Origin: a virus
Taxonomy: Duplodnaviria > Caudoviricetes
Direction: 5' to 3' (one strand)
Length of the DNA: 64,000 nucleotides
IMG/VR virus record: IMGVR_UViG_3300025678_000005
A model generated the notes under the pieces. That model searched no databases and had not been told where the DNA came from. It saw only the letters and a list, made by a program, of their open reading frames with translations. How positions within the stretch are numbered: the first letter of the stretch is position 1; each line of letters begins with the position of its first letter. A program made the position numbers and the translations under genes. This document shows positions 19,094-39,599 of this stretch, in pieces.

Positions 19094-19096
19094 AGT

Positions 19097-19372: not shown

Positions 19373-21386
19373 AATCGTTTGTTGGAATTATTCCATAATG
19401 TTTGTATCCTCTGAAATCTGTTCATCATCCCACATGATGAAATTCTTTATTTTTCTTTATTCTCTCTTTTGGTTTTAATACAGCCAATTCCTCATCTCCA
19501 AGTTCAGCCATTCCCATTGCTGCCACAATATCAAATTCTTTCTTTTTTGCATCAGAATATCTTAATAATTGATCAACCATGTCCCTAAAATGCATCGTAT
19601 GTGAGTAATCAAGAATAAAATCATATAACAATTCTCTATAATGTGTAATTGTTTTAACTGTTGCTGGAGCGCCATACATATTTGAATTTCCCTTTACTAC
19701 ATCCGTCATTGTAGACCTTGGTCTTTTCATTAATAAATGTATCAGTTTATTATCTCTAAAATAGGTTAATATGGCTGTTCTCGTAGATTCAAGTACTGCT
19801 TTGCAACCATAATATACTAATAATTTAGCAGCAGTATCATAAGCTTCTTTTAAATATTTTGGCCTATCATTATACATTGCTACATACATTGGATCTTTTA
19901 ATCCAAATATTCTTTTTTTGATTACAATACAAAATTTAGATCCACCAGAACCAGAAGCAGAATCTTCAAGTCCTATATCAATAGAGTCTATTCCACCAAC
20001 ATATAAATTATCATAATATTCTCCATCTTCTGTTTTAATTGGATGTTCTATGATAGAAATTTTTCCAAATTTAGCATCTTCAACTCACTCAACTCCAATT
20101 ATTTCGTCTTTTTCATTTCTTTTCCAAACCAAATAACCTACTGAAGGTTTTTTTGTATTTTTATGTACTTCAATATTTGTCATTTGGTTTGCCAGTTGTT
20201 CTTGGGGGAAAAAATTATCTCCTTCCAAACTAAAAGCCTCATCTAATGTAAAACAGTATTCTGCTTTATAAATCATTAAGTCCTTTGGCTTATGTTCAAG
20301 AACTTTTCTTTCTTTTTCATAATGAGCCTTTGCCAAATCTGGATCACACCACCCTCTATTATCAAGCAATTCAAAAACAATTTTAGTTGCTGGAATAAAG
20401 AATGCAGAAAATGTATAAGATCCATCTTTAGTATAATTATGTCTATATTTTAAAATATTATATGCTTCTGGGTCTGTTACAATATCTTTTAACCCAGCTA
20501 ATTGTGGCCCAGTATCTCCACCAGTTCCTCACACAATTCTAGTTCCTACTCTACTTCCTCCTAATACTTTAATTAATGCTTCTCCCTGAATATATTTACT
20601 TTTTAAATTTGGATCAGATCCAGCCTCTTCAAATAATAGCCTTTCTGTTCTATCACCCCTTATTTTTTCTGCAGAGTCTGCAATTACCCCCTCTATTTCT
20701 GACATATGTCCTTTTTCAGAACCATCCTTTGTTTTTTTGGATGCTCTTTTATACGTATTAGTGTCAATTGCCATTCTTAAATGCTTAAATCCTTTTTCAG
20801 TTTCTTCATTTAATCAGTTAAGCTGTGCCCATATTTTAGATAAAATTGGAGACAAATGTCTTTCTGATGGAGCGGTAACAAGAGTTCTATAATTAGGAGT
20901 AGTTGTATATGGTCTTACAGCCAACTCTGCACCTATTTCAGATAAACCAACACCTCTTGATTTTATAAGCCCAATATCATATCCCAACAATTCACACATT
21001 TCAACATAATGAAAATATTCATATTGAAATACTAAGAACATTGGAAATTCTATTTTTCTACCCCTGCTCTTTTCATTTCTAGACCCTTTTAGTCTATGAA
21101 AATTTAATCAAAAATAATTATCACCAGAAATCCTATATCCATTTGATTCATAACCTTCAACGCATCTCCTAATTCTTTCAGATCAAAAATCTCTATAAGA
21201 TTGTGTACCAAACACTGTATCACTATATTTACCAGTATTCATTTTATGTATAGCGTCCTCTCTAAATCAATCAGGATTAAAGTCCAATCCACTTGTTTTA
21301 TTAATTGGTATATATTTTGTTAACTCATAAGATAAATTAGTATCAAAATATTCTATAGGATCAGTTATTTTTACATCTCATTCCAT
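19296..21386 (-). CDS. terL: Terminase large subunit; TGA=Trp
   Basis: Starts ME(TGA)DVKITDPIEYFD. Walker A-like KSRGVGLS, Walker B LLFEEAG, coupling motif (TGA)GTGG, RNase H-like YVGGIDSID and FDIVAAMG. Four fragments share one frame. Confidence 0.88.
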
Positions 21387-21392
21387 ACATTG

Positions 21393-21950
21393 CTAATCAA
21401 AAAATCCTTCTTCTACATCACCTCTAAGTGTAGATTCTTCTTCTAAATCTTGTTTAACCTGCTTTTCAAGAGATTGTAAACTAATTATAAGGTCTTTACA
21501 TCCTTTAATCTCGGCAATTAAATCTTTTGTTTTAACAATTGGTTTGTTTGTAGCTGGGTCTCTCTCACTAACGTCTACATTTTGTAAATAATGTATAACA
21601 GTTTCTACAGATGCCATCGCTGCTCTTAAAAGTCTAATTGACAATCCAGAATTCTGAATTTCATCATATTTTCTGCAGGCAGCCCTAAAATCTGGATCAC
21701 CAAATTCTTCCTCCGTTAATCCAGAACTATCTAAGGCACTTAAATGTCTGTCTTGTTCCATGAAATTAAAAAATGGACTTTCCCAATCAAAAAATAAATA
21801 AATGTATGTGAATTCTTTAAAAGCAAGTCTGTCGTTTTTATATTTTGATCTGCTTTTATTTATTAACGTAGCAAACTCTTTTACTAACAATATTTCATCT
21901 TTATTTAAAGATAACTTAGCATTAATTTTATCATATGTAAAAAACTTCAT
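21393..21950 (-). CDS. Hypothetical protein upstream of terL (small terminase candidate)
   Basis: 185-aa helical ORF; the function guess rests on position only. Confidence 0.6.
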   Translation of the reverse strand: MKFFTYDKINAKLSLNKDEILLVKEFATLINKSRSKYKNDRLAFKEFTYIYLFFDWESPFFNFMEQDRHLSALDSSGLTEEEFGDPDFRAACRKYDEIQNSGLSIRLLRAAMASVETVIHYLQNVDVSERDPATNKPIVKTKDLIAEIKGCKDLIISLQSLEKQVKQDLEEESTLRGDVEEGFFD

Positions 21951-21995
21951 AATTAGTATGTGCTTTTATTTTATATAAACTATCAATTATTAAAA

Positions 21996-22517
21996 TTATA
22001 GTTTTTTCTTTAAATGTTTATTTATAATATCAGTAATAGGATTTTCTATTTTATTGGGGTTGTTTTTTGAATCAATGTTTTCTTTTTTATTTTGAATATT
22101 TCCGCCATTCTTATCCTTCTCTGCTTTTGAATTTTTGCACCCACAAGCACAAACCTCTACCATTTTACCACCAGCCCTTTTCAATACAATATCACACCCA
22201 CATTTACACTTCTTTCCAGTTGATTTTGTTTGATACTTTTGAAGCTTTTTTAATTTCATTCCCTTTTTAGCAAGGGCCGTTTGATCTTCTTGATTTTTTT
22301 GTGATTCTATTAAACTTGTAATAGCTGTTTCTGGATCCTCTGCATAGTTTTTTCAAAATTCTTCACTAAGAGATGGAATTAGTTGTGAGAACATATTTAC
22401 ATATTCTTCTTTTAAATTCCCATTTTCATCGGCAGCTTCTTCTTCGGATACTCCCATTAATGTTAAATAATTTCTTGCAAAATCAGAAATAAGATTTTGA
22501 AATTCGTTTTCGTCCAT
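21996..22517 (-). CDS. Hypothetical protein with Cys-rich (CKCGC/CACGC) C-terminal part; TGA=Trp
   Basis: ATG 22517 is in frame with ORF 21996..22259 via one TGA. Confidence 0.65.
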
Positions 22518-22536
22518 ATTATTATTTTAATATATT

Positions 22537-22764
22537 TTATAATTTAATTAAATCTTTTGTGTTAAATATAGCTTCCTGTAGTTCTCCACTAACAGTAAAT
22601 CATCTGCATAAAATTCCCTGGAAATACTCATTCATTGTATGATCTCTAGTTATAACAGTTTTGCTTATTTTTTTAACTACAAGCATAATTGGTTTATTTG
22701 GTATTTCCTGTCTTATTGTTACCAAGTCTCCTGGTAAGAAAAATTGTTTAGTCTCGTCCGCCAT
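22537..22764 (-). CDS. Small YodC/DUF2158-like protein; TGA=Trp
   Basis: MADETKQFFLPGDLV...PIMLV...GIYCR(TGA)FT...EAIFNTKDL. Confidence 0.6.
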
Positions 22765-23260
22765 AAAATCTATCTTTTAATCCTTCATTTAAAACACATA
22801 ATAGTTGTGATTCAGAAGTAATTACATATCCAAGTGACATAAAAGGCAATGGATAGACTGTACGTGTATCATAATATACATCATCTCCAGGTTTAACATA
22901 TTTACATTCTGGGCCAACCTCTATTACTTTTGCACATCCAACTAATACTTTTAACTTATCTTTTTCTCCAGAATCTGGATTTAAAAAGTCTCCATGATAA
23001 TCTACAATAATATTCCCATCTACTATTTTTCTATATGGATTTTCTGGATAGGCCATTAAAATAACCCTATTTTGCATTGGAATCATCTCTAATTTATCGG
23101 CCTTCTCATCAATTTCTTTTTGTTTCTGTTTTTCAGCTTCAAGAAGAATATTATTAAGTTCTTCCATTTCACGTTTTTCTTGAATACTTAATCCATTAAT
23201 ATCTACAAGATTTTTACTATTAAAAAAAATCTTGTTGTTCATGTTTTCATACTTACTCAT
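22748..23260 (-). CDS. GroES-like co-chaperonin
   Basis: PMQNRVIL...AKVIEVGPECKYVKPGDDVYY...ITSESQLLCVL. Confidence 0.7.
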   Translation of the reverse strand: MSKYENMNNKIFFNSKNLVDINGLSIQEKREMEELNNILLEAEKQKQKEIDEKADKLEMIPMQNRVILMAYPENPYRKIVDGNIIVDYHGDFLNPDSGEKDKLKVLVGCAKVIEVGPECKYVKPGDDVYYDTRTVYPLPFMSLGYVITSESQLLCVLNEGLKDRFYGGRD

Positions 23261-23266
23261 AATTTT

Positions 23267-23542
23267 TTATCATTTATTCATTGGACATTTAGCATCTGGC
23301 ACTCTACATTTTGAAGCAAGTATACAACCACAACCATGTATATATCCAGGTTCTTTAGAAGAAGAAATCTCTTCTGTTTCTGGATTTATATATAGTCTTG
23401 GATTACAAACCTCTCCAAAAATATTATCTATTTTGTGTAATTTACAACATCTACATATTTTAATTCTATTATTAAATAATTCTTCTTCTTTATTGAAAAC
23501 ATTATTTAAAGTTCCTTCTATTATTTGCTCAATATTAAACAT
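23267..23542 (-). CDS. Cys-rich Zn-binding hypothetical protein ending CPMNKW
   Basis: CRCC...GCGC...KCPMNK then TGA TAA. Confidence 0.65.
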
Positions 23543-23961
23543 ACTATTAAAGTTATTGCTGCGCTTCCTCCTGCTATAAATGGAATTGATCTTTTTTGTC
23601 TATTATATGATTTAATAACATTGGAATTAATTTCAAGCAATTTATTATATTCAATTTTTTGCTCATCTATTCACTTGTTATTCAACAATATAATTGAATC
23701 TTTCAAAACAATTTCGCTGTTTTTTACAGATAACAATGAATCTTGTATATTAGTATATTCTATACTTCATTCATATAATTCTTTATACTTTTCAAGATCA
23801 GTTACATATAATCTTAAACCAAGTAAATCTTCTTTAAAGAAATTATAAGTTATTACAGTGTCCGAATTATTTTCTCACACTGTTCATTTTGACGATTGAG
23901 TCCAGCCATTCCGCATGATTAACAGCAGAAGCATCATACACAAACTTAATTTTTTTATCAT
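23521..23961 (-). CDS. Secreted/membrane protein, spanin-like partner; TGA=Trp
   Basis: N-terminal signal-like MIKKLSLCMMLLLLIM, coiled coil, C-terminal TM. Overlaps the 3' end of 23867..24208; absent from ORF track. Confidence 0.55.
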
Positions 23962-24208
23962 ATTTTATATAAATAATTTGTTTTTCGTTTTTTAAAGAAT
24001 CTATTTTTTCAGTTAATATAGAATCTTTTACTTTTAATACAGTATTAATACTGTCTAATTTTGATATTTTTAATTCATATTCATTTATTATTTGTTTTCT
24101 ATCTTTTTTATATTTGTTTGAAAAACAAAAAATTATTGATATAAATATAATCAATATCAATATAATTTTAAAATACGATTTTATTTCTTGATGCTTTAAA
24201 TTTATCAT
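23867..24208 (-). CDS. i-spanin-like protein (N-terminal TM plus coiled coil)
   Basis: KIILILIIFISIIFCF followed by heptads. Confidence 0.55.
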   Translation of the reverse strand: MINLKHQEIKSYFKIILILIIFISIIFCFSNKYKKDRKQIINEYELKISKLDSINTVLKVKDSILTEKIDSLKNEKQIIYIKYDKKIKFVYDASAVNHAEWLDSIVKMNSVRK

Positions 24209-25058
24209 GTTCTAATTCTTTTTTATAGTATAATAACATTCTTTCCACATCATTTTTTAAATAATTACATGGATAGTAGTTAATATTATCTGCATGATCA
24301 TAATGCGCTATCGTCAAAGATTTAATAATTGCATCTGGATTATTTTTTTCTATTATCCATGCATATGTTGACAACTGTAAACTATATTGCCAATAATTTG
24401 AATCCATTAAATTATTCAATGGAAACTTCATCATTACATTTTTCTTTTCTTTTCTATCATAAAAAGATTCCATATCTATTTTTGAAGAAGACTTATAATC
24501 TACAACATGTATTTCATTATTATCAACAATAACTAGATCTGCTTGTCCAGCTAATCTAAAACTACTATCTTTTGTAATATGTGATAATAAAATTTCTGGA
24601 TATATGGCTTGTGTTCCTAATTGTATTGTGTTAGTTGTATTAGGTAAAAATTTACCTCCTAATTTTAAATAACTTAATTCCTTAATGTCACCAACCAAAT
24701 TACCAGATTCTAATTCTTTATGTAGTTTTGTTCCTCTAATACAAGATTCCCTTGATTTGTTATTCCACTCTTCTATTACTTGCTGCTTTGTTATTAAAAA
24801 TATGTCTTTATCAATAGACCACTCATCCAAAAGAGATTCTTTAAAAGTTTTTGTATCTAGAAGCCACATCTTGAATTCATGAAATCTTGGACTTATCTTT
24901 TCAAGAGCTTTATAGGATGCCCAAAAATCACTATCGAATGTTGTAAACTTATGTATTAAAGTAGTAACAGAAATACATTCTTGTAATGTATTTTTTGTTA
25001 AATATTTGTGTGAAGCATCTTCATAAATAACATCTCTATTTTCCTTGTCAATATTCAT
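24168..25058 (-). CDS. PD-(D/E)XK exonuclease-like nuclease
   Basis: ISVTTLI, RGTKLH, LAGQADL, VVDYKS, YSLQLSTY. Confidence 0.8.
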   Translation of the reverse strand: MNIDKENRDVIYEDASHKYLTKNTLQECISVTTLIHKFTTFDSDFWASYKALEKISPRFHEFKMWLLDTKTFKESLLDEWSIDKDIFLITKQQVIEEWNNKSRESCIRGTKLHKELESGNLVGDIKELSYLKLGGKFLPNTTNTIQLGTQAIYPEILLSHITKDSSFRLAGQADLVIVDNNEIHVVDYKSSSKIDMESFYDRKEKKNVMMKFPLNNLMDSNYWQYSLQLSTYAWIIEKNNPDAIIKSLTIAHYDHADNINYYPCNYLKNDVERMLLYYKKELEHDKFKASRNKIVF

Positions 25059-25061
25059 ATT

Positions 25062-25745
25062 TTATTTTAATTTTTGCTTTAAGTCTTCTAAATTAATTAA
25101 AGAACTTATAATTTGTGCTGCTTCTGTTACTTTTGGTAATATTTCTTTTTTATTCAAACAGCTACCTTTAGATTCTATTGAAATAAACCCAAGTATTGTA
25201 TCAATACCATATAATGGAAAAAAAAGAACAGATTTTACATCTTTTAATATACTATATAATACTGGATATGAATCTTTTATATCTTGTATGTCTTCTATAC
25301 AAAAATATCCTTGCTCCTCTAATTCATCTATGAAAGATGCTAATAATGACATATTTATTTTATTATATGCATCTGCCGTACTCAATATTCCATCAGATAC
25401 TACTTCATACGTAGCATTAACAAATAAAAAAGGCATTCCACTTAAATTGTGAGAACTATTAGAAAATTCAAATAATAAAATTCTGTCGGCCCCAGTTTCG
25501 TCTAATAAAGTTGCTAATATTTTTTGTATTTCTTTTGATGCTTTTCTTCTTTTTGTTGAGGCTGTTTTTTTATGTTCATCTACTGAATCTAATTTATTTT
25601 GAACTATTTCCCTGGCTATGTCTGGAAAAGTTTTAATAAGAAATTGTATTATAAGTGTAATAAAAATTAATAATAAAAAAAGCATTCCAAATGTAGATCC
25701 ATAGCTACTAGAAATACGTTCAAAAAATTTAAAAAGTCCTTCCAT
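25062..25745 (-). CDS. Membrane-anchored protein with GAF-like domain (possible T4 T-like holin)
   Basis: N-terminal TM, then GADRILLFEFSN...GFISIE. Confidence 0.5.
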   Translation of the reverse strand: MEGLFKFFERISSSYGSTFGMLFLLLIFITLIIQFLIKTFPDIAREIVQNKLDSVDEHKKTASTKRRKASKEIQKILATLLDETGADRILLFEFSNSSHNLSGMPFLFVNATYEVVSDGILSTADAYNKINMSLLASFIDELEEQGYFCIEDIQDIKDSYPVLYSILKDVKSVLFFPLYGIDTILGFISIESKGSCLNKKEILPKVTEAAQIISSLINLEDLKQKLK

Positions 25746-25777
25746 TCAATCAATTTAATTTGGTAAAATTTAATTTA

Positions 25778-25785
25778 CAAAGTTA
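25778..25785 (-). promoter_or_regulatory. Bacteroidota-type -7 promoter box TAACTTTG
   Basis: Matches TAnnTTTG, 33 nt upstream of ATG 25745. Confidence 0.5.
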
Positions 25786-25935
25786 TTAACTTTTAAAATA
25801 AAAAAATTAATATCATATTAAATATTATAATTAATAGTGAAATAAATAAAAGAGCTAATATAATTTAATATTAATTAAAACAAATAATTAATAAAATATT
25901 ATATTACTCTTTTATAATAATAATTCTTTAATATA

Positions 25936-28194
25936 TTATAGATGCAATATTTCACAGGAATTGCCATTACAAGCCTGTGCAGAATAATGATTAATTTCTT
26001 TATATTCTGGTTTTGTTAAAATAGTATTAAATTTAACTGTTTTAAATTGTCTGTTAATAACTTCTCATTTGTGTAAAAGATTCAAATCCTTTAAACAATA
26101 TATAGTCTTTTGTAAATCTCCACCAAAATAATTATTTGCAAACTTTTTAACTCTGCTAATCCAATACTTTTTTAATATTATTTGTTCCTTTGTTCCAGTT
26201 ATTTGTAGTTTTCTATCTTTAACCAAATCACATGCAGCTCATAAATTTTCATTAAAGTAATGCAATCCATCAACTATTAAACCAGAAGCAAATAATACAC
26301 CACGACCATATCTATCCATTAGTTCTTGTTCTGCAAGTATAGATGTATATGGAGCTTGATTATAATCTTTATCTATAGAATCAGTAACAAATGATACTGC
26401 TGTAAAATATTCTCTATTATCTCATATATAATCTATCATTTCTGAAAGATTATCTATAATAACAGTATTAGAAGTATTATGATGTGTTCCTTTATAAGCG
26501 CCAAGTTCTTCATTTACACCAATATTTACTCAATTTTCCTGTACAAATTTTATTAACTCAAGATGTTTTATTCCTTTTAAATCTTGTTTATATAAACCAT
26601 CTGTATTGTTTTCTATTGGAATAAATATAGCATAATCAGAATTATTCTGTGAGTCTAAGGCATCTTCTAATAAAAAAGACATATTTTTATTTAACCATTT
26701 TGCTATTTCATTTGATTTATTTATTCGCATTATTCTAAAATATTTTTTTGCATGTTCTGGATGTATGCCAGAAGCAGTGCCAAGAATAACGGAAGAGTTG
26801 CCAGAAGGTTTTACACAAGTCAATCTGGCTGCTGGAGATACATTTATAAAATTACCAATGACTTTATTTGTTTCTTTAATTACTTTAACTCCGTGTTCTA
26901 ACCATTCCTCATTAAATAACTTTGTATTATTCATCCACCCTGTAATAGAAATACCCAGCAGTGAATCTTGTTGAACTATTTCTTTTGTTGTGTCACCCAA
27001 ATAATCAAAATTATTATAACCACACTGTACTGTTCCAAGTATAGCAGCAGCTTTACAGGCATCTATGAATTTTTCTTCAGTAGTACAATTCTCTGCATTT
27101 ATCTCAGTTAAATTGCAAAAAGAAACTCCAAGATCTTGAAGATGATCTTTTATAAATTCTTCTAATTCATTATAAGATAATTCATTTATCTTTTTATCAA
27201 ATCTTTTATAAGCTATTGGATGTTGTAAAATTTCAAAACAAGGATTGAACATATCAAATCAAGAATTTGCAAAAGCAAATCCAATATCGTTTTTTTCATT
27301 ATTTAAAGAAATAATTTTATCAAATTGTTCTTTACTTGTTTCATTTCTTAATAATAAGACAGAATTATTTGTTCTGCTTCTTTGTGGATTGTCTATCCAC
27401 CAATTTCCAGTCTTGGCATTAATCATCTCTTCATCATTAATATCAACAATCATACACATTGCTGACCTTCTAATACCACCACTTAATACTGCTTCAGATG
27501 CAAAACATAAAATGTCACAAACAAGTATTGGTCTAATAACACATCCTTCTGTCTTTATTCAATTGTCAAGTAATTTTTCTATATTATTAAGTGCTTTTCT
27601 AAGGCCTTCCGATCCAGGGGCTTTAAATCCACCAGATATATAAGATCCTTCTGGTCTTATTCTTGAATAATCAAATTTTATTTTTTTACCAGCATATTGT
27701 GGAAAAGGTTGATTTGTGCTAAAATAAGATGACATTAAAACACCAAGAGCATCTGCTCAACTTTCTATATTGTCTTCAATATAAAAAGTCTCTGTTCCAG
27801 TAGTTCTTTCTTGTAGTCTTGGTAAATTATTAACAAATGGAAGTAATAATCCTATTCCAACACCACAACCACACAAAGAAAGATAAAACACTTCTTGAAA
27901 TACTCTTGGCCTTGCAGCATATATTGTAGAACAATTATATAATCTTGCATTATGTTTTTCTATTTGTTCATTCCTATATTGCAAACTTCTTTGTGATGCT
28001 AAAACATTTTTTGATTTCATTTGCTTAAGAGCAAATTCTAAATATCTATTTAAATCTTCATTATTATAATGCTTGATATGTCCAGATATAATATCCTCAC
28101 AAGCCTCCTCTCATGTTTCATATCTATCATCTTTCCATTTCAGGTAATCTGAATACAGTTTTAAATCACTTAAAAATTTTTTTCCTTTTTCCAT
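25936..28194 (-). CDS. nrdJ: Ribonucleotide reductase (probably class II, NrdJ-like); TGA=Trp
   Basis: ATG 28194. RYET(TGA)EE, LYNCS, GGIRRSA, NPCFEI, FCNLTEI, TCVKPSG and C-terminal ACNGNSCEI all in one frame. Confidence 0.8.
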
Positions 28195-28216
28195 ATAATA
28201 TAAATATAGTTTATTA

Positions 28217-28250
28217 AAAAAGCCCATTATTCCAATATAAAATAATGGGC
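28217..28250 (-). terminator. Intrinsic terminator-like hairpin
   Basis: GCCCATTATT...AATAATGGGC followed by a T-run on the minus strand. Confidence 0.55.
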
Positions 28251-28322
28251 CTGTAATTGGTTAATGTGAGATGTTTATACTTTAAAATATTCTAATATTT
28301 TCTCTTGTCACATACCGCATAC

Positions 28323-28490
28323 TTATAATCTATGATAATTTTTTACCTTATCTCCTACTAAATCTGGCTCGTATTCAAGTAATGTCTGTCTTATAAATTT
28401 TTTTGATGGGTTGCCCAACATTAGTTGTATGCCAGCATACGTATATCCTTCTTTTCTCAGTTCTATAATTTTCTCTTGTAGTTCTGTCAT
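28323..28490 (-). CDS. Small HTH-like protein
   Basis: MTELQEKIIELRKEGYTYAGIQLMLG. Confidence 0.55.
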   Translation of the reverse strand: MTELQEKIIELRKEGYTYAGIQLMLGNPSKKFIRQTLLEYEPDLVGDKVKNYHRL

Positions 28491-28508
28491 TTTATGTACT
28501 TTTAGCTG

Positions 28509-28581
28509 CACCCTCGCCCCGATTCGAACAGAGATCTGACAATTTTGAAGATTGTGGTTTTACCAATTAAACTACGAAGGT
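28509..28581 (-). tRNA. Opal suppressor tRNA (anticodon UCA), probably Trp-accepting
   Basis: Cloverleaf ACCTTCG/CGAGGGT; D arm GTTT-AATTGGTA-AAAC; anticodon arm ACAAT-CTTCAAA-ATTGT; T arm CTCTG-TTCGAAT-CGGGG. A1-U72 and G73, short variable loop, no encoded CCA. Confidence 0.92.
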
Positions 28582-28597
28582 ATTTATTTTTCATATA

Positions 28598-28605
28598 CAA
28601 AGTTA
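28598..28605 (-). promoter_or_regulatory. TAACTTTG promoter box upstream of the suppressor tRNA
   Basis: TAnnTTTG consensus 17 nt upstream of the tRNA 5' end. Confidence 0.55.
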
Positions 28606-28744
28606 TGTAAAATTATATGATATATATTAAAAAATTTATTGTTTATGAAAATATTACTTTGTTTTAATTGGTAGACATATTTCTATATAATTTTATTTGT
28701 TTTATATATTATTTTTTAATTATATTGCCTATAAAATAGAAATT

Positions 28745-28966
28745 TTAATTAATATCTTCAAATATTTGTTTTAAAAATTCAAATGTAAGAGCATTTAATT
28801 TTGTTGAAATATATTTATCTAAATCAAGTCCAGTAGAGTAAATTTCTATTGTCTCGTCATCAAATCTAATAGTTCAAAAATCTTTTTTAAATTCATCCAT
28901 TATACTGTTATAATTTCTAGAAAATACACTCTCATCTAATAGTTTAATTATTTCTTTTTTTGTCAT
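28745..28966 (-). CDS. Hypothetical protein (73 aa); TGA=Trp
   Basis: MTKKEIIKLL...KDF(TGA)TIRFD...EDIN-TAA. Confidence 0.5.
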
Positions 28967-29146
28967 AATACATTAATTATATTGTTTTAAATATAATATT
29001 AAACATCTACACATCATCTTTACTATATGTATTTTTGTCATATAAAACTTATATTTTCTGTCATTTAGTCATTAAATCTATATTGGTATTAGATTTGATA
29101 TTTATATTTTAGATAATTTATTTATAAATCATTAAATCTTTATAAT

Positions 29147-29422
29147 ATGTTTACCGATATACTAAGTCAACTATTTAATAACTATCCAATTTCAACAGAT
29201 GATACTACAATCAGACTACTGGTTCCTGGATATGGAAAAGAAGATCTAATACTAGAACAAGAAAATAATACACTAACAATCAAAGATACAAATAAAGATA
29301 TTCTAAAGATAATAAGAATACCAAATGATATTGAATCTATTGAAGCTAAATGTGATAAAGGAATCCTAGAACTAAAACTAAATAAAAGTACAGAGAACAA
29401 GAAGGTGATTGCTATACAATAG
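29147..29422 (+). CDS. Small heat-shock protein (Hsp20/alpha-crystallin)
   Basis: VPGYGKEDL...NTLTI...IEAKCDKGILELKL. Confidence 0.8.
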   Translation: MFTDILSQLFNNYPISTDDTTIRLLVPGYGKEDLILEQENNTLTIKDTNKDILKIIRIPNDIESIEAKCDKGILELKLNKSTENKKVIAIQ

Positions 29423-29696
29423 CAGTCACCTCTTCATTTATAGGTTTAAAAGCATTTTTAATTCTAATCATCTTTTCTATTTCTGGTATTAACAAAAATA
29501 ATATATCAGCAGCCTCAGTTACAGTTGGAGCAACTACTTCAAAATCTGCATTTTCTGGATTAATAATAGATGGAATACCCAATAATATTGTATTATCTAT
29601 ATTAGCAGTTATATGCATTTGCTTATTATAAGGTTCTAATAATTTATTTATTGTATTATAATTATCCAACATTCTATCCTCATCAAGTAGTATCAT
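29412..29696 (-). CDS. Hypothetical protein
   Basis: 94-aa ORF. Confidence 0.6.
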   Translation of the reverse strand: MILLDEDRMLDNYNTINKLLEPYNKQMHITANIDNTILLGIPSIINPENADFEVVAPTVTEAADILFLLIPEIEKMIRIKNAFKPINEEVTAIV

Positions 29697-30138
29697 AGTT
29701 TATAAAATTTAAATATTCAAAATTACCTGTGTTTCTAAAGATATTTACAATCTTTAATATTCTATATTAATCTGATTTTTAATTATTTCTACTTAAATTA
29801 TTATACATTATAATTTAATTGAAATGAAAGTACAAATATACATCTTTTCTATTAAAAAAATTAGAGTTATACACTTTAAATAAATACTTCAAATAATTAC
29901 TAATTACATCCAAGATTTTTATAAAATTGTGTTTTGTACAGTCATTTAGTTTGTGTATATTTATTTTTTATTATCATATTAAATATTTGTTGTTATATAG
30001 AAATTTTTTATAACCTACTATAAAAATCATTCATAAATAATATTTTATACAGTAAAATTAATATCAAAGTAATATATTTGTAACTTAAATATAATATTTT
30101 ATCTATACTTTTGTATATTATTTTAATAAAGCATTTTT

Positions 30139-30384
30139 ATGAAAAAACTATTCTTAATTTTATTTTCTTTTATTTTACCATCTTTCAATTTACCTGTTCC
30201 AAAATTTACAGAAAAACAAATTTTAGATGCAATAAGTAATTATAAACAATTTGCATTAAATTGTGTTCCAAAAAATTTAAAAACAGACACTATTGAATAT
30301 CAAAGAAATGATACAATATTTATTTTAAGATTAGACTACAACTATATTCCATGGGTTGTAGAAATAAAAAGGCCAAACAAATAA
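30139..30384 (+). CDS. Hypothetical secreted protein
   Basis: Signal-peptide-like MKKLFLILFSFIL. Confidence 0.55.
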   Translation: MKKLFLILFSFILPSFNLPVPKFTEKQILDAISNYKQFALNCVPKNLKTDTIEYQRNDTIFILRLDYNYIPWVVEIKRPNK

Positions 30385-30398
30385 AGTTTGGCATTTTA

Positions 30399-30659
30399 TT
30401 ATTTTACTGTATTATTTTTGTCTGCTAATGATGAACCTGTTGTATACCAAATCCTATTTTTTCAATCCATATATGGATAAACTGGACGGGGATCTACTGG
30501 ATTAACTATATCAATAGATGCTCTTACTGGTACAATTGTATATTCTTTATAATCAACATCCATTTTATTTAATTGTTCCATCAACTCATTTATTTTAACT
30601 TCATCTACTATTTCAATTGTTTTATTATTTGTATCGATTGTAAATTTCATAATATTCAT
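30399..30659 (-). CDS. Hypothetical protein (ends at 30462 if TGA is a stop)
   Basis: ORF 30462..30659; the next in-frame TAA is at 30399. Confidence 0.5.
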
Positions 30660-30694
30660 TATTAAAATTATATTTTTATTTATCTTATAGTATA

Positions 30695-31417
30695 TTATAT
30701 TACTATCTCATCATCAATCTTCTTCTCAATTTTATCAAGTCTCTTATTTAATCTCTGTATCTCATTAATTAATAAATCTACATCCTTTGCGGTAGCACTT
30801 GTTTTTTCTTTCAAATCATTAATATCTTCTTCGTGTTTCTTAAGTATCCATATAATGGCTTGTCCCAGAGCATTTAAATTAAATATCTTTTCATTAATAA
30901 TAATTCCAGTGGTAGAATCCTTTGCTTCCGTCCTAATAGTTGTTAAAAATCCCTTCTTTTCCAAAGACTTATGATACTTTACAATAGAATTATATGACAT
31001 GTTTATCTTCTTTGATAACTCATAATCTGTGTATGTAACTTTTCCATATCCAGGCAAATCTTTATACATATATTGTTGCTCTGCAATGATTAAAGCCTTC
31101 TCTTCTGTAGTTATATCTGTTCTATCTAAAAATTCATAACTGAAAGGCTCAAAACCCTTATACATGTTAAACACATATAGATTACTTCTGCCCCTCTTTT
31201 TTATCATAATATAGCTATACTTAACCAATTTATTAATTGCCTTTAGAACTGTTTTCTTGGATACTCCTGACTTCTTTACAATGGTAGACAAAGAAGGAAA
31301 ACAACTATAAGTATTTCTATTTATAAATTTCTTTATTGTAACATAAACTAATAAATCTTTTGGAGTTAATTCCTCATTTATTGTCATATCATTTGGTAAT
31401 TGTACATGTTGCTTCAT
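30695..31417 (-). CDS. Double winged-HTH protein (replication-initiator/regulator-like)
   Basis: CFPSLSTIVKKSGVSKKTVLKAINKL, a second HTH ELSKKINMSYNSI, and a C-terminal coiled coil. Confidence 0.7.
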   Translation of the reverse strand: MKQHVQLPNDMTINEELTPKDLLVYVTIKKFINRNTYSCFPSLSTIVKKSGVSKKTVLKAINKLVKYSYIMIKKRGRSNLYVFNMYKGFEPFSYEFLDRTDITTEEKALIIAEQQYMYKDLPGYGKVTYTDYELSKKINMSYNSIVKYHKSLEKKGFLTTIRTEAKDSTTGIIINEKIFNLNALGQAIIWILKKHEEDINDLKEKTSATAKDVDLLINEIQRLNKRLDKIEKKIDDEIVI

Positions 31418-31547: not shown

Positions 31548-31682
31548 GGAAAATCTTTCTGAAATTTTTTAAAATTTTTTTTGAAAATTTTTTTTAAAAT
31601 TTTTTGTATGTCGAATGTATGAAACCAGTCTATTATCCTACCCCCAATAGGGTTTGATGTAAAACTCTTAAAAATTATTCTT

Positions 31683-32084
31683 ATGAAGACGTTAAAAAGC
31701 GGGATTGAGTTGTACGACTCAATACCTACAACTTTACGGCTACGGTACTCAAACCGCAGTCAGTTGCAAAAAGGTTCTACCTATACCGTTTTAGGTGTGG
31801 GTAAAATACCACTACGCAACGGAGGGTCATACGACGCCGTTGTTATGGAGAATAATGGGATAGAAACATACGTCTCTATTCCAACGTTTTTGGGGATTGT
31901 TTTCCGAAAGGAAGACAATGCCTGGACACGCAATTTGATCAACAACGGTGGGATAAATACCGTTGACAAATTGGAAACTTTGATCGATAAAAAGATCAAA
32001 GTTTCTGATTTTATTACCGAAGAGATAACAAATTTCTCTGGTAATAATGTAGAGAGAGAATTTCCTGTTTGGGAAATTCTCTAA
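31683..32084 (+). CDS. Hypothetical protein, first gene of the right arm
   Basis: 133-aa ORF followed by a terminator. Confidence 0.7.
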   Translation: MKTLKSGIELYDSIPTTLRLRYSNRSQLQKGSTYTVLGVGKIPLRNGGSYDAVVMENNGIETYVSIPTFLGIVFRKEDNAWTRNLINNGGINTVDKLETLIDKKIKVSDFITEEITNFSGNNVEREFPVWEIL

Positions 32085-32092
32085 TAAAAAGA

Positions 32093-32126
32093 TAGAGAGG
32101 GAGAAGAAATTCTCTCTCTCTTTTTT
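32093..32126 (+). terminator. Intrinsic terminator
   Basis: AGAGAGGGAGAA-GAAA-TTCTCTCTCTC followed by T6. Confidence 0.75.
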
Positions 32127-32151
32127 AAAATAGTATAGTATAAAATAATAT

Positions 32152-32420
32152 AAGTCCTGAGCAAGACAGCAAACTGCTTTGGTAGCAACTTACACTCTAC
32201 CAATAATATGATGAAGTATAGTAGTCATATTTAAAAGGAAAGGTAAGAGGTATAAGAATAAGACATGTGTACATGATCTTATCGCCTAAATAGGGAGCTT
32301 GGCATGTGATTAAACTGGTACACCAGTCCGTAGTAGTCACTAAGTTTGTACCTTTAATAGATGAAAGGTATGGTGCAGGGATTGGGAATGCCTGTTATAG
32401 AGAATACCTGAAAGTTCTCT
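32152..32420 (+). ncRNA. Candidate multi-hairpin structured RNA
   Basis: ORF-free and GC-elevated; 5' H-type pseudoknot plus several consecutive hairpins. Confidence 0.4.
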
Positions 32421-32432
32421 AATTATATTTTT

Positions 32433-32471
32433 AAGAGGAGTATGCTGAAAATCCTTTAAAAGAGTAGGCAA
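32433..32471 (+). promoter_or_regulatory. Leader RNA motif, copy 1
   Basis: AGGAG-TATGCT-GAAAA-TCCT-TTAAAAG-AGTA-GGCA. Confidence 0.55.
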
Positions 32472-32491
32472 ACTAAATAATAAATAAAATC

Positions 32492-32941
32492 ATGAATACA
32501 AATATATTTAAGGCGGTAAAAATGCAAGATGCAAATGAAAAATTTAAAGCGCTAAGATTGCAAGATACGGCTAAAAAGATTGCTATTGACATCTCTTATA
32601 ACTTGTCTTTTTTATATAATGAGGCTATAAGAGAAGGATTTATAAATAGTTATAATCTTGAAATTTTTCCTAACGGAGAATATGGTTATGAGATAATAGT
32701 TTATCCCGAATATCAAAGCAATAATAAAAAGTTGGATTTCTTTCGTTATAATCTAATAGTATTTATTTATACCGACGGAGGATTAGATGATTTTCGAGTA
32801 TGGAAAGATAGCAATATTGTTAATATATCTATTCATATGTACAGCAAACCAATTAAAACAGTAAGAAAAGAATTTAATGAATTATTTGAAATTGGTTTGA
32901 AAGAAATTAACGAAGCAATAGCGTCATTGATTTATGAATAA
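32492..32941 (+). CDS. Hypothetical early protein
   Basis: 149-aa ORF. Confidence 0.7.
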   Translation: MNTNIFKAVKMQDANEKFKALRLQDTAKKIAIDISYNLSFLYNEAIREGFINSYNLEIFPNGEYGYEIIVYPEYQSNNKKLDFFRYNLIVFIYTDGGLDDFRVWKDSNIVNISIHMYSKPIKTVRKEFNELFEIGLKEINEAIASLIYE

Positions 32942-33061
32942 ATGGGAAATGAAATATAGTAGTAAGCAAAAAACAACAATGGATTTACTTAAGTTGTTCT
33001 AAAATGGAACATGTTAGATAGTTATTAGCAAACAAAAAACAACAACTTAAAATGCAAAAAT

Positions 33062-33718
33062 ATGGAAACAAACGAATTACAATTGACTGAAAAAAGCACT
33101 GGAAGATATAAAAGTGCATACGAGTTTATTGATGCATTAAAACCGCAGGACATGTTGTCGGTAATCAGAATGTGCCCAAGCGAAAAATTGAAGATTTTCA
33201 AAAGCGAAACAAACATAGAATACCTTGAGAAAGGATTAGAAGCCATGAAACAGGCAAGAAATGAATATTTAAAGCGAATTAAAGAAAAGACGGTAAGAAG
33301 GGATAATGATTTAATAAGGTGGAATAAAAACCTTGTCGAAGATGCCGAATCATATTTAAACGATTTAAAAACAAAAGAAATTATAAAACGAGGGGCTACT
33401 CAATCAGAATTAGATAGTTTTTTGAAAGCATTGGAAACCAAATATGCTTCTGACATAATAGGTGTTGACACGTTTTATAAAAAACTTACAGAGCAACAAG
33501 TTGATTACTTATTGCTTAAACTAACCGACAATTGCAAATATAAACCGTTTTTAAGAGAGTGTGACTTTAAGACGAAGGCAGATTATCGACGATATAGGAT
33601 AAAAACCGACGTTATTCAAAATCTTTTGTATCAGAAAACAAAGAAATATCCTTATTTTGATATTTTCGAATCCGAACTGAATAATTTTTACAATACAGTC
33701 AATAAAAACAACAATTAA
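33062..33718 (+). CDS. Hypothetical protein
   Basis: 218-aa ORF with more CG-containing codons than its neighbours. Confidence 0.7.
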   Translation: METNELQLTEKSTGRYKSAYEFIDALKPQDMLSVIRMCPSEKLKIFKSETNIEYLEKGLEAMKQARNEYLKRIKEKTVRRDNDLIRWNKNLVEDAESYLNDLKTKEIIKRGATQSELDSFLKALETKYASDIIGVDTFYKKLTEQQVDYLLLKLTDNCKYKPFLRECDFKTKADYRRYRIKTDVIQNLLYQKTKKYPYFDIFESELNNFYNTVNKNNN

Positions 33719-34061
33719 AATTTTATTAAAATAAGCCTAATTGAAGACAGATTAGAATTTAGTTTAATGGTAGATACATTTCATGGTACAGATGAAGAAA
33801 TGTATGTTGCTTTTAGTCAAGTTAGTGAGGCTATAAGAGAACTAAGAAGATTAAGAGATAAATGTGATGAATTAAATAAAAGAATATTTGAATTAGAAAA
33901 CAAAAATTAAAGATTATAGATACGAAAAGAGAGCAAATTATGGAGTTTCTCGAAACATTGCCGACGCCAATTGACGTTTTGAGTCTTGTCGATATCGGTG
34001 ATGTATAAATGGCGTTGCCGACTTTGAAACAAATAATTATCAATTAAAAACGAAGATAGAT

Positions 34062-34328
34062 ATGAAATACAAACTTACAATTACAGACGGATACGGTAAT
34101 GAACATTTATACAATGTTGTGCGCAGTTCTTCTGATGAGCCAAAAAATTTGAATGACTTCATTTTAGAAGCCCTTTCAATTAGTGAAGATAAAAGACAAT
34201 TGCCGTTTTTAATTCAATGCCCTAATGGATTAGAAGTACATCCTTCAATTAAAATGAAGTTTGAAAATTATGGTAGTTCGTTGTTTGGTGATAAACTCGA
34301 AGCAATGATGGTAACGTGGCGTGATTGA
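34062..34328 (+). CDS. Hypothetical cassette protein (TGA stop)
   Basis: 88-aa ORF whose start lies inside a hairpin. Confidence 0.65.
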   Translation: MKYKLTITDGYGNEHLYNVVRSSSDEPKNLNDFILEALSISEDKRQLPFLIQCPNGLEVHPSIKMKFENYGSSLFGDKLEAMMVTWRD

Positions 34329-34410
34329 ATTGCGCACAACGTTCCGATTATTTGCGTTCGGTGGGAATTAAAACCACTGAACCTCATTTTAAAAACAAAA
34401 CTTTAATAAT

Positions 34411-34671
34411 ATGCAAAACGATGATTTGAAAAATAACACCCCCACTGACGCAAATAATGTATTAGTGGCTGGGCTTTCTCTCATTCAAGCTAAATATGCC
34501 GCAATGATTGAAAGTAAAAAAATAAGACACTGTTCCTTTATGGATGATGAATATCTCTACTATAAAAATGGTTGTTGGTTCACTCATGATGATTATCAAT
34601 TACCAGATGTGTGTTTTTTAAATGAACAAGAACAAGGGTGGTGGAATAATAGTTGGTCGGTGGTGTCATAG
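34411..34671 (+). CDS. Hypothetical cassette protein
   Basis: 86-aa ORF whose start lies inside a hairpin. Confidence 0.65.
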   Translation: MQNDDLKNNTPTDANNVLVAGLSLIQAKYAAMIESKKIRHCSFMDDEYLYYKNGCWFTHDDYQLPDVCFLNEQEQGWWNNSWSVVS

Positions 34672-34686
34672 CCTTGCCACTAACAT

Positions 34687-34722
34687 AAGGAGGTTGCCGA
34701 AAATCCATAAAAGAGTAGGCAA
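34687..34722 (+). promoter_or_regulatory. Leader RNA motif, copy 2
   Basis: AAGGAGG-TTGCC-GAAAA-TCCA-TAAAAG-AGTA-GGCAA. Confidence 0.55.
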
Positions 34723-34744
34723 AACAAAAAAAACAAATAAACAA

Positions 34745-34987
34745 ATGGAAAAATTAAAAAAAATCCAAGTAGAAGCAGCATCAGAAAAAGCTGCTATGGT
34801 TCTTTACAGGTATTTAAATAGTTTAAATACCATTGATTTTGAAGGATCAATTTTTATTGAAAATCTTCAAAATGAAATTTTTGGAGCCGATCTTAATCCT
34901 GTTGATGATTCGTTTAATTTAATCATCGAAACAGATTTAAGAATATGTAAAGTTTCATATGAAATCAGTACTTATAGATACAATTAA
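34745..34987 (+). CDS. Hypothetical protein
   Basis: Likely start at ATG 34745 within ORF 34622..34987. Confidence 0.6.
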   Translation: MEKLKKIQVEAASEKAAMVLYRYLNSLNTIDFEGSIFIENLQNEIFGADLNPVDDSFNLIIETDLRICKVSYEISTYRYN

Positions 34988-34989
34988 AT

Positions 34990-35217
34990 ATGAAACCTAT
35001 TGTAAAAAATGTTAAAGTGTCGGCCTATTCTCCAAAGGCCATGTCTATGTTACTACCTTATATTGGAGATATTAAAGGTAGCATTTTTGATCCTCGTGCT
35101 TTTAAACACGAACTTTATTTTATGATAAATAAATATAATTTAGACCCAGTAAAAGATAGTTTTACTATCAATATTTCTGCTGGAAATAAATTGTATACTT
35201 TTCAGTATAAAGATTAG
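34990..35217 (+). CDS. Hypothetical protein
   Basis: 75-aa ORF. Confidence 0.6.
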   Translation: MKPIVKNVKVSAYSPKAMSMLLPYIGDIKGSIFDPRAFKHELYFMINKYNLDPVKDSFTINISAGNKLYTFQYKD

Positions 35218-35240
35218 TTAAATACTTTAAAACTAAAAGT

Positions 35241-35615
35241 ATGGTAGAAGATAAAATTGCTAATCTGCTTATAAAAAATAAATCCTATTTAATTGATGTC
35301 ATTTCAATAAGAATTAAGGATTGTATCAATATGCTCGCACAATCCATAGAAGAGATTTATGATGTAAATGAGACTTATATTTTTTATAAGCGCAATGGAT
35401 TAGATTTAGCCTATAATAAGAAGTCTGCCAAAGAAATGAAACTTCTTATTGAAAATTTGAAAAAAGAAGATATTGAAGCAATTAATGCTATACAGTATGC
35501 TTCTTTAATTAAAGCTTTGGCGATAGTTGGTAATAAAACTATCGACCCATATGAATATGAACTTATTCTTGCTTATTGTATGGATAAACTCATACAAATT
35601 AACCTTACAATATAA
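35241..35615 (+). CDS. Hypothetical protein
   Basis: 124-aa ORF. Confidence 0.65.
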   Translation: MVEDKIANLLIKNKSYLIDVISIRIKDCINMLAQSIEEIYDVNETYIFYKRNGLDLAYNKKSAKEMKLLIENLKKEDIEAINAIQYASLIKALAIVGNKTIDPYEYELILAYCMDKLIQINLTI

Positions 35616-35638
35616 TAGGGTATCCTATTATATTTTTT

Positions 35639-35671
35639 AAAGAGTGTGCTGAAAATCTTAAGAGTAAGCAA
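35639..35671 (+). promoter_or_regulatory. Leader RNA motif, copy 3
   Basis: AAGAGTG-TGCT-GAAAA-TCTT-AAG-AGTA-AGCA. Confidence 0.55.
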
Positions 35672-36030
35672 ATTAAAATAATGTATCATGAAAGAATATT
35701 ATTTATTACCAGATGGGTCTTTATCTAATACAAGACCTGTCGATTATGATAGAAGATGAATTCTATTGTAATAACAGTTTTAAAGTTTGTACTGTTAAAC
35801 GAACTTTATGTTTTATTTATTAACTTGTTAAACTAAATTATATTTATGCTAAAGAAGTATTATCTTACTACCAATGGAAATATCCTAGATACAAAAAAGA
35901 AATGTTTTTTAACTCCAACTGGACACTTCTTAAGAGATGTATCTGAAGAAGAACTGGGTTACTATACTAAAAAATTAACCCCAATTATTCTTTTTAAAAA
36001 TATTAATAAACAGTAAAAAAGTTTAAAAAT

Positions 36031-36342
36031 ATGAAAAAGGAAAAAGAAGCTATTTATTTCTTTATTTGTTTATTGTTTCTAATAGCAATTACTTCTTTTA
36101 TGCTTTGTAACTGTACAGAGACAAAAAGAAGTGCTTCTATTACTATAAAAGAACAAAAGAATATAATAAGAGAGTCTCCAAGAAAGGTTTACATTAATCC
36201 TTACAAATATTTTGTTTTGTATGGAGACTCTTTTAAATTGAAAGAGCAAATAATAATCACCAATCAAAAGAAAGCAAAGAGAATTATTCATTGTCTTGAG
36301 AGAGATAACATAAAATATATATATTATGAAAAAGGTGAGTAA
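36031..36342 (+). CDS. Hypothetical membrane/lipoprotein
   Basis: N-terminal hydrophobic stretch followed by Cys. Confidence 0.6.
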   Translation: MKKEKEAIYFFICLLFLIAITSFMLCNCTETKRSASITIKEQKNIIRESPRKVYINPYKYFVLYGDSFKLKEQIIITNQKKAKRIIHCLERDNIKYIYYEKGE

Positions 36343-36498
36343 TAAACAAGCGAAAGAAACCGCATTAAAAGATATGCGGGAAGAAGGAATGCATTATAAT
36401 CCTTCTTTTGATTATAGAATGCGAAATTAAAAAGTTGGTTTGACGGATAGTCATCACTGGGAGTACCTCAAGCTCCTTTATAAAAAAATTAATTAATT

Positions 36499-36864
36499 AT
36501 GGATCTATACAAAGAAATAGAGTATATTGTTGGTACTAATAAAGACACAATAAAATATATTTGTATCGACAGTTTAAACAATTATATGGATATAATGTTC
36601 TATGCTTTTCGACATAAAATAAATGAAACAGAACATCTTATAAAATATATAAAGGATTCTCATGTATTTTATTTTGATAAAAATGTTATTCCTGTTTTGA
36701 GTAATGTTATTGAAAAGATAGAAAAAGAAGATTTTGGTTTCACAGCAGAGGAATGCTATTATTTTAGCAAAGCTCTTATACTTAGAAAAGATATTCAAGT
36801 AAATAACTTTCTACTGGATGAATTGGCTTCCTGTCTGCTTTCTGTAATTACTAAAGAATTTTAA
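36499..36864 (+). CDS. Hypothetical protein
   Basis: 121-aa ORF. Confidence 0.6.
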   Translation: MDLYKEIEYIVGTNKDTIKYICIDSLNNYMDIMFYAFRHKINETEHLIKYIKDSHVFYFDKNVIPVLSNVIEKIEKEDFGFTAEECYYFSKALILRKDIQVNNFLLDELASCLLSVITKEF

Positions 36865-36865
36865 C

Positions 36866-37063
36866 ATGAAAACTCTTAAAGGAGTGTTTAAAACTGTTAA
36901 TAAATTTGAATGTAATGATGAAATTTTAACAGTTATTCCAATTGAATTAATCATAAATAAAATTGAATTGGAGAGGGAATGCTTTGTGAATGTGAGAGTT
37001 AACTCCTCTAATTCCCTCGTCATAACTTCGATCTGTTATCTTTCAGATCTTAATTTTCAATAA
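36866..37063 (+). CDS. Hypothetical protein
   Basis: 65-aa ORF. Confidence 0.5.
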   Translation: MKTLKGVFKTVNKFECNDEILTVIPIELIINKIELERECFVNVRVNSSNSLVITSICYLSDLNFQ

Positions 37064-37153
37064 AAAAACTCTTATATACTAAAAATTCACTTTTTTTCAT
37101 TATTATCCTTTTTTAAACAATTAAACTATTTATTAATATAAAATTAGAAAATT

Positions 37154-37465
37154 ATGAACCCAAACATTGAAAATTTAATGATTTTGTTGGAAGAATTAAA
37201 GAAAAAAGATTTATCTACCGACGATTTGATTTTTGAAGTTGAACAAAGTATTGCCTCTTGGAAGCCGTATCATCATTTAGACCCTGATGTAAGAAATGCT
37301 TGTAGTGTAAAAGAACTAGCTGCAGAAGATATTATGGAAGTTTTGCTTAATAATGCTATAAAAAATCCATCTTATCTTGTAGAAAATTTGGAAAAAGTAT
37401 TTTCAAAAAGATCTTTAGCTTTCATGATGTATAGAGCCATAATGCAAGCTATTGAGCAAAAATAA
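37154..37465 (+). CDS. Tandem paralogue family, member 1
   Basis: NIENL...SWKPYHH...AC...ENLEKVFSKRSL motif shared with the downstream copies. Confidence 0.75.
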   Translation: MNPNIENLMILLEELKKKDLSTDDLIFEVEQSIASWKPYHHLDPDVRNACSVKELAAEDIMEVLLNNAIKNPSYLVENLEKVFSKRSLAFMMYRAIMQAIEQK

Positions 37466-37477
37466 ATTTCATAAAGT

Positions 37478-37800: not shown

Positions 37801-37802
37801 AT

Positions 37803-38449: not shown

Positions 38450-38580
38450 TAACCTTTATGTGTCTAGAAATAAAATCTTCATTAATTGTGTCAAAGGAAC
38501 TCATTATTTGTTATAAGGCCATTAAACGAATAAAGAAGGCAGATAAAATCTTTATAATAAAATAATCAATTAACTAAAAT

Positions 38581-39500: not shown

Positions 39501-39599
39501 AAAAATTTATTATATAATTGATTTCAATATCAAAATAAAGAAAGAAAATACAAATCAAATAAAAAAAATTAAAATTTAACAATTTAAAAATTTACAACT

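Follow-up and report, generated by a model that had tools for sequence, protein, structure and literature searches.

A phage that encodes a tRNA with the anticodon UCA raises the question of what this tRNA does: whether it reads UGA as tryptophan for the phage's own genes, and if so, how it is charged, when it is made and how it prevails over RF2. We analyzed one such gene, located in a window of 64,000 nt (the whole stretch of DNA considered here, positions 32019-96018 of a single 138,532-bp IMG/VR viral contig). The original prediction held that the gene encodes an opal suppressor tRNA, with its own host-type promoter, at the head of a recoded arm. ARAGORN found a single tRNA in the window (minus strand, 28508..28581, anticodon tca), and the same gene is the sole tRNA gene of the whole 138.5-kb contig. 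Coordinates of the features considered below are collected in Table 1.

Table 1. Features of the tRNA(UCA) locus, of the two arms of the window and of long-arm tRNA(UCA) genes in relatives. Coordinates are those of the window unless a relative's locus is named.
Feature	Position	Strand or source	Basis and remarks
tRNA(UCA), class I, putative Trp-type opal suppressor	28581..28509	minus	ARAGORN; Rfam tRNA; covariation in 10 orthologues; Trp-specific D-arm
TAACTTTG box, Bacteroidota -7-like, candidate promoter element only	28605..28598	minus	pattern match
HTH55, 55-aa ORF, no Trp, no TGA	28323..28490	minus	start 18 nt after tRNA; predicted three-helix HTH
Small ORF, 73 aa, directly upstream of tRNA	28966..28745	minus	TGA at codon 31, where Trp is conserved (W31)
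ORF of 86 aa upstream of tRNA, one in-frame TGA (W66)	30659..30399	minus	ORF translation
Terminator-like hairpin, 15 pairs and T run, between HTH55 and RNR-like gene	28252..28220	minus	hairpin search
Bidirectional terminator-like hairpin	30392..30372	both	hairpin search
RNR-like gene, 752 aa, 8 in-frame TGA	25936..28194	minus	PHROG 367, E 1e-70
TGA-recoded arm, window part: TerL, portal, tail, giant virion proteins	3..31417	minus	ORFs, PHROG
Standard-code arm: PolA, helicase, many small ORFs	31581..64000	plus	ORFs; Trp is TGG, TGA a rare stop
tmRNA-like gene	38581..38652	plus	both ends of the Rfam tmRNA model, whole middle missing; 42 bits, gathering score 47
Long-arm tRNA(UCA) genes	L004:3281-3376, L013:1555-1654, L040:990-1082, L057:1331-1425	relatives	also many loci in L078-L212

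The general tRNA model of Rfam matches the gene end to end, with 55.2 bits (E 3.7e-9) against a gathering score of 29. At 73 nt, the tRNA forms a class I cloverleaf of 7/5 acceptor/T geometry, with a 7-bp acceptor stem (ACCUUCG/CGAGGGU, including A1-U72), a 4-bp D stem, a 5-bp anticodon stem closed by the loop CUUCAAA, a variable loop of 5 nt and a 5-bp T stem that includes two G-U pairs. The discriminator is G73 (the G at 28509), and the CCA end is not encoded. Among 10 orthologous class I tRNA(UCA) genes of related phages, compensatory changes are seen at 14 of the 22 pairs, and the anticodon loop CUUCAAA, G73 and a Watson-Crick U11-A24 pair are invariant. The tRNA calls and the compensatory changes in the orthologues place this gene far beyond chance and indicate that it is under selection. 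The complete UCA cloverleaf with a short variable loop, seen originally in the sequence alone, is thus upheld by both ARAGORN and Rfam.

The D-arm speaks for the isotype. In a pattern search of bacterial genomes, 61 of the 78 bacterial tRNAs that carry the D-arm pattern of tRNA(UCA) were tRNA-Trp(CCA). Together with G73 and the anticodon loop (C-U-[U]-C-A-A-A), this D-arm identifies the body of the molecule, as far as sequence can tell, as that of a tRNA-Trp in which C34 has become U. The anticodon is UCA and not the CCA that defines tRNA-Trp, pointing to a suppressor rather than an ordinary tRNA-Trp. Two Trp identity elements had been singled out at the start; one of these, G73, is invariant in the 10 orthologues, whereas the other, A1-U72, is present here yet not conserved (pair 1-72 is AU in 4, GC in 2, GU in 2 and CG in 2 of the 10). 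BLASTN did not help to assign the isotype: the 74-nt tRNA had no matches in E. coli genomes, and matches among GenBank phages were limited to generic 80% core matches to tRNA-Met and tRNA-Lys. At position 24, all 62 bacterial tRNA-Trp(CCA) that share the D-arm pattern have G, and the window tRNA and its 10 orthologues have A. The Hirsh UGA suppressor of E. coli is tRNA-Trp G24A. A24 of the phage tRNA(UCA) may be the same change, and we regard it as a lead on decoding efficiency.

That the gene encodes a selenocysteine tRNA, which would read TGA as Sec at special sites, is vanishingly improbable: the anticodon UCA and the ARAGORN label 'tRNA-SeC' (a label that reflects the anticodon only) would suit it, but the structure refutes it, with a length of 73 nt, 7/5 geometry, a 4-bp D stem, a 5-nt variable loop and a match to the general tRNA model, as do the Trp-specific D-arm and the 252 in-frame TGA codons at Trp or aromatic columns described below.

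What kind of phage carries the gene can be judged from its terminase and portal. TerL (PHROG 6681) and portal (PHROG 6547) were both recognized. TerL is about 29% identical to those of named crAss-like phages of Bacteroides and 47% identical to the nearest GenBank record, an unannotated human-gut phage; it also matches TerL of Flavobacterium and Cellulophaga phages. By these protein comparisons we class the phage as a divergent crAss-like phage. Its host, judged solely from crAss-like kinship, is probably a member of the Bacteroidota.

Two codes are used in this genome, largely according to strand. Under translation table 11 the minus-strand genes are shattered, and reading TGA as Trp joins them into continuous ORFs, the longest in the genome having 2,921 aa. 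In-frame TGA occurs in 40 of 53 minus-strand ORFs (252 TGA versus 77 TGG genome-wide), and these ORFs end in TAA or TAG throughout. The recoded minus arm does not stop at the window edge: it reaches genome position 380 and, past the contig ends, takes in 112148..138460. The 48-kb plus arm holds 77 ORFs with 133 TGG codons; TGA serves as the stop codon in eight of them, four of which have TAA or TAG within the next 12 codons. Beyond the end of the window, plus-strand ORFs at genome 99556-100749 and 111559-112158 (397 and 199 aa) each apparently need one TGA read-through, and hence the code boundary is not perfectly strand-bound. As a separate observation, the Rfam DUF805b RNA motif has two matches above gathering score in the standard-code arm, at 32435-32470 and 34687-34721 on the plus strand.

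The meaning of TGA was read from TerL. All 59 IMG/VR relatives, found through TerL at 55-65% identity, have in-frame TGA in this gene. We aligned TerL of the window phage with that of 37 relatives (38 sequences); a TerL homologue search returned members of the same recoded clade only and yielded no standard-code alignment independent of it. Columns opposite the TerL TGA codons hold TGA, TGG-Trp or Phe/Tyr, and this interchange indicates that TGA equals Trp at the codon level. In three relatives (L047, L048 and L055), TerL is interrupted by large inserts. Protein P0117 carries Pfam PF05204, PF05203 and PF14528, which we take to be homing-endonuclease/intein domains. These features would echo the intron and intein richness reported for the Zeta crAss-like phages.

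The host might itself read TGA as Trp (code 4), in which case the phage tRNA would merely supplement the host's own and no code switch would take place. A G+C content of about 26%, as in many code-4 lineages, and the spread of recoding to non-structural genes such as the RNR-like one would suit such a host. However, the plus arm, with TGG for Trp, essentially no in-frame TGA and some TGA stops, presents an asymmetry that would not be expected there. Moreover, TerL groups the phage with crAss-like phages of Bacteroidota, and standard-code hosts have been reported for such phages (10.1101/2021.08.26.457843). We consider a code-4 host highly improbable.

A tRNA(UCA) in a standard-code cell must be aminoacylated and must compete with release factor. 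We found no RF-1, PCRF or class Ib synthetase (tRNA-synt_1b) domain in the 138.5-kb contig (75% complete by CheckV), nor in two relatives (178 and 213 kb) that are 100% complete. The original claim that no release factor or TrpRS gene is visible in the window therefore holds and can be extended to the whole contig and to both complete relatives. That a release factor or TrpRS gene was missed in the contig at hand seems unlikely in view of a 138,591-bp sibling contig and of both complete relatives. The clade thus appears to rely on host TrpRS and to encode no release factor. These absences agree with the report that release factor and TrpRS genes are only rarely found in recoded phages (Borges et al., 10.1101/2021.08.26.457843) and with the insertion of Trp by all 13 phage tRNA(UCA) species analyzed by mass spectrometry in E. 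coli extract (10.1101/2025.10.30.685624). In the latter study, suppression yield depended on RF2 strength. A weak-termination context does not provide the phage's answer to this competition: the base following in-frame TGA is near background, except that C is depleted (4% versus 10%), not enriched.

We favor, with a probability of roughly 85%, the reading that the gene encodes a TGA-to-Trp suppressor tRNA of a recoded crAss-like phage, charged by host TrpRS and serving translation of the minus arm. The tRNA and its conservation, the strand-specific recoding, the equivalence of TGA and Trp at the codon level and the absence of phage release factor and TrpRS genes carry this reading; charging by the host's TrpRS, expression timing, promoter and the way in which RF2 is outcompeted we infer. 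The transcript would be processed and its CCA end added by host enzymes, and the host's own TrpRS would charge the product with tryptophan. The charged tRNA(UCA) would then read UGA as Trp, enabling translation of the minus arm with its about 250 in-frame TGA codons (roughly three quarters of its Trp codons), and thus the production of terminase, portal, tail and giant virion proteins, the RNR-like protein and others. The plus-strand replication arm, written in the standard code, would be translatable before the tRNA is present. The tRNA itself probably comes from a short unit, bracketed by hairpins, that runs from small ORFs through the tRNA to the 55-aa HTH gene.

The placement at the head of the recoded arm, as first described, is correct in that the gene lies near the 5′ end of the arm, but the gene is 2.8 kb inside it, and two minus-strand ORFs upstream already contain TGA. 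Hence tRNA(UCA) is near the head of the recoded arm, though neither its start nor its first recoded element. The first large recoded gene downstream encodes the RNR-like enzyme and no late structural protein. A clean early/late timer is not evident, because the two ORFs upstream of the tRNA already need tRNA(UCA) and the RNR-like enzyme gene is recoded.

The same position in the arm, behind ORFs that already need it, would suit a suppressor that acts mainly as a weapon or a shield, either by causing read-through of TGA stops of the host or of competitors, thereby crippling proteins of the host and of defence, or by making essential phage genes untranslatable for competitors. An anti-defence role of this kind has been proposed by Yutin et al. 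(PMC7886860) and in PMC12386605. The tmRNA-like gene of the plus arm is consistent with a tag-less tmRNA reduced to its tRNA-like domain, which would make sense if read-through flooded host ribosome rescue. Nevertheless, the strict partition of codes between strands is no less consistent with a temporal or modular logic, and we consider it unlikely that attack or protection is the main role of the suppressor. The two roles, in attack or protection and in timing, do not exclude each other.

A further possibility is that the tRNA is an independent early gene, transcribed from its own host sigma-type promoter. In Bacteroides, the promoter consensus consists of TAnnTTTG at -7 and TTTG at -33, about 19-21 nt upstream. 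The predicted box just upstream of the tRNA does exist: TAACTTTG, on the same strand, ends 16 nt before the first base of tRNA(UCA). Also in keeping with a dedicated promoter, the window phage, unlike its relatives, has a 163-nt AT-rich spacer between the tRNA and the upstream ORF, and a few other start codons are preceded, at a distance of 29-54 nt, by boxes resembling TAACTTTG. Yet TTTG is missing from the 40 nt that precede the box, and so of the two elements recognized by the housekeeping sigma factor of Bacteroidota only the -7-like one is present. TAnnTTTG occurs 130 times in the window, compared to 126.6 expected, and a count over 41 upstream intergenic regions gives 7 sense and 6 antisense copies, arguing against a phage-wide promoter of this type; 7-mers enriched in the same 41 regions are AT-rich words only. 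Nor is the box conserved. In all 12 relatives examined it is absent within 110 nt upstream of the tRNA, which in most of them abuts the preceding ORF, starting about 10-40 nt past the stop codon of a conserved small ORF. The chance frequency of the box, its lack of strand bias, the missing -33 element and the lack of conservation all go against the promoter originally proposed, and we find separate early expression from TAACTTTG doubtful.

Hairpins at the locus offer another view of how the tRNA is transcribed. There are four terminator-like sites in 3.8 kb, compared to 0.3 expected. One of these, the bidirectional hairpin upstream, may be the upstream limit of a transcription unit ending in the tRNA and HTH55, and another follows HTH55. 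These two hairpins suggest a short unit, comprising small ORFs, tRNA and HTH55, that would be kept apart from both the RNR-like gene and the structural operons. Homologues of the 73-aa small ORF precede tRNA(UCA) in all 12 relatives examined.

HTH55 is a conserved companion of the tRNA. In relatives it is found downstream of class I tRNA(UCA) at 49-75% identity. An alignment-based search yielded 36 homologue loci, in 27 of which a class I tRNA(UCA) of 72-74 nt precedes the homologue in the same orientation at a distance of 15-2,280 nt; 5 more are set among other tRNA genes, and none adjoins a long-arm tRNA(UCA) of the kind described below. Close orthologues contain few Trp residues, all encoded by TGG, as expected for a module that needs to be translated in the standard code. 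The AF2 model predicts a three-helix HTH (pLDDT 84) whose fold matches are weak and generic (LuxR/GerE/sigma-region-4), and no Pfam family matched. Neither result gives any sign of a translation factor. The simplest reading is that HTH55 is a small regulator that would bind DNA and be expressed together with the tRNA. The conserved pairing of tRNA(UCA) with HTH55 is, judging from the loci compared, new here. At one relative's locus (L044:3600-3800), only the 3′ half of tRNA(UCA) is recognizable upstream of the HTH55 homologue, the 5′ half being displaced; this tRNA gene may contain an intron or be disrupted.

Another form of tRNA(UCA) occupies the same locus in four relatives. There, after the same small ORF, lies a tRNA(UCA) of 93-100 nt with a long variable arm, and HTH55 is absent; one of these carriers is a complete genome without any HTH55. 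In the TerL tree, long-arm carriers fall into three separate supported clades among class I carriers. The loop of the long-arm hairpin reads N-U-CCA-A-N, i.e. the anticodon loop of tRNA-Trp. In an IMG/VR pattern scan that did not require this motif, it was present in 37 of 51 distinct long tRNAs, and across all loci in 59 of 76 long tRNA(UCA), on 34 different stems. Among long tRNAs with other anticodons, the motif was found in just 2 of 91; both of these have the anticodon loop CUUCAAA and thus are mis-called UCA tRNAs. Infernal alignment assigns the UCA hairpin to the anticodon arm and the CCA hairpin to the variable arm. Many long-arm tRNA(UCA) have A1-U72, G73 and an encoded CCA end. TGA still aligns with Trp in TerL of the long-arm lineages. 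In the literature searched, we found no suppressor tRNA or tRNA-Trp described as having a variable arm that resembles an anticodon arm. Apart from these genes, the tRNA arrays of two complete relatives contain a tRNA-Trp(CCA) of 82-84 nt whose variable arm is extended, an unusual feature in tRNA-Trp (L072:6327-6410 in G001; L073:7043-7124 in G002), and G001 also has an amber suppressor tRNA(CUA) despite its TGA-recoded TerL.

The CCA anticodon is the main identity element for TrpRS. Given this, the CCA arm may be a decoy anticodon for TrpRS. It is conceivable, though we would bet against it, that tRNA(UCA) and HTH55 form a dedicated code-switch module, the plain tRNA being invariably accompanied by HTH55, and that in this clade the module is one of two interchangeable solutions at the locus, the other being the HTH55-less long-arm tRNA(UCA), whose copied CCA arm would recruit host TrpRS. 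HTH55 would then perform a task for the plain form that has become dispensable in the long-arm form; candidates would be control of the dosage or timing of the tRNA unit, or help against RF2. One caveat here is that the link between the long arm and loss of HTH55, which comprises three independent contrasts only, could also be explained by physical linkage in cassette replacement.

The gene confirms the published picture rather than altering it. With one tRNA, no release factor, no TrpRS and two strand-separated codes, it is a very clean example, and this makes the phage a minimal system for studying how one suppressor tRNA can recode a cell that uses the standard code. Of wider interest are the small HTH gene almost always attached to the plain suppressor, and the widespread, apparently undescribed family of long-arm tRNA(UCA) with a second, CCA-bearing anticodon-like arm. 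Should this arm indeed recruit TrpRS, nature would have solved the charging problem that UGA suppressors pose for genetic-code engineers. The putative tag-less tmRNA could matter as well, if stop-codon read-through loads host ribosome rescue.

Several known tRNAs and systems resemble this one in part. Bacterial tRNA-Sec shares the anticodon UCA, but its 8/5 (or 9/4) geometry, 6-bp D stem, long variable arm and SelA/SelB/SECIS apparatus are all lacking here. The code-4 tRNA-Trp(UCA) of Mycoplasma and mitochondria is similar in having a Trp-type body with C34 changed to U, and it reads both UGA and UGG. Code-4 organisms have no RF2, however, and hence no competition, whereas the window tRNA has to function where RF2 is presumably present. 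With the Hirsh suppressor it shares A24, although the Hirsh tRNA keeps the CCA anticodon.

Among phages, the 'code change module' of Jade, described along with a temporal code-switch model and consisting of tRNA, TrpRS and RF1 (Borges et al., 10.1101/2021.08.26.457843), is similar in that tRNA(UCA) sits in a small, standard-code-compatible module upstream of recoded genes; this module has been proposed to change the code of the cell in the course of infection. The Jade module contains TrpRS and RF1 and precedes the lysis cassette, and its hosts are Firmicutes. In the window phage neither of these two genes was found, so the full set of tRNA(UCA), TrpRS and RF1 is not assembled there, and the partner is the 55-aa HTH protein instead. 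The closest likeness is to TGA-recoded crAss-like phages. In 243 crAss-like phages, Yutin et al. (2021, PMC7886860) described the reassignment of TGA to Trp and of TAG to Gln, for the most part in late genes, together with suppressor tRNAs; the Zeta-group phage Lera is a described TGA-recoded example (PMC12386605). Like these, the window phage combines a recoded structural or late block, a standard-code replication block and its own tRNA(UCA). It differs from the named gut crAss groups in the low identity of its TerL, and its relatives, unlike the named crAss-like phages, are metagenome-derived viral contigs of IMG/VR, the complete ones with arrays of 25-28 tRNAs compared to the single tRNA seen here. 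The window tRNA is therefore of a known kind, and the mechanism first proposed for it, in which its accumulation unlocks the late genes, restates a published hypothesis. It also differs from the described crAss-like suppressors in its pairing with a conserved HTH gene.
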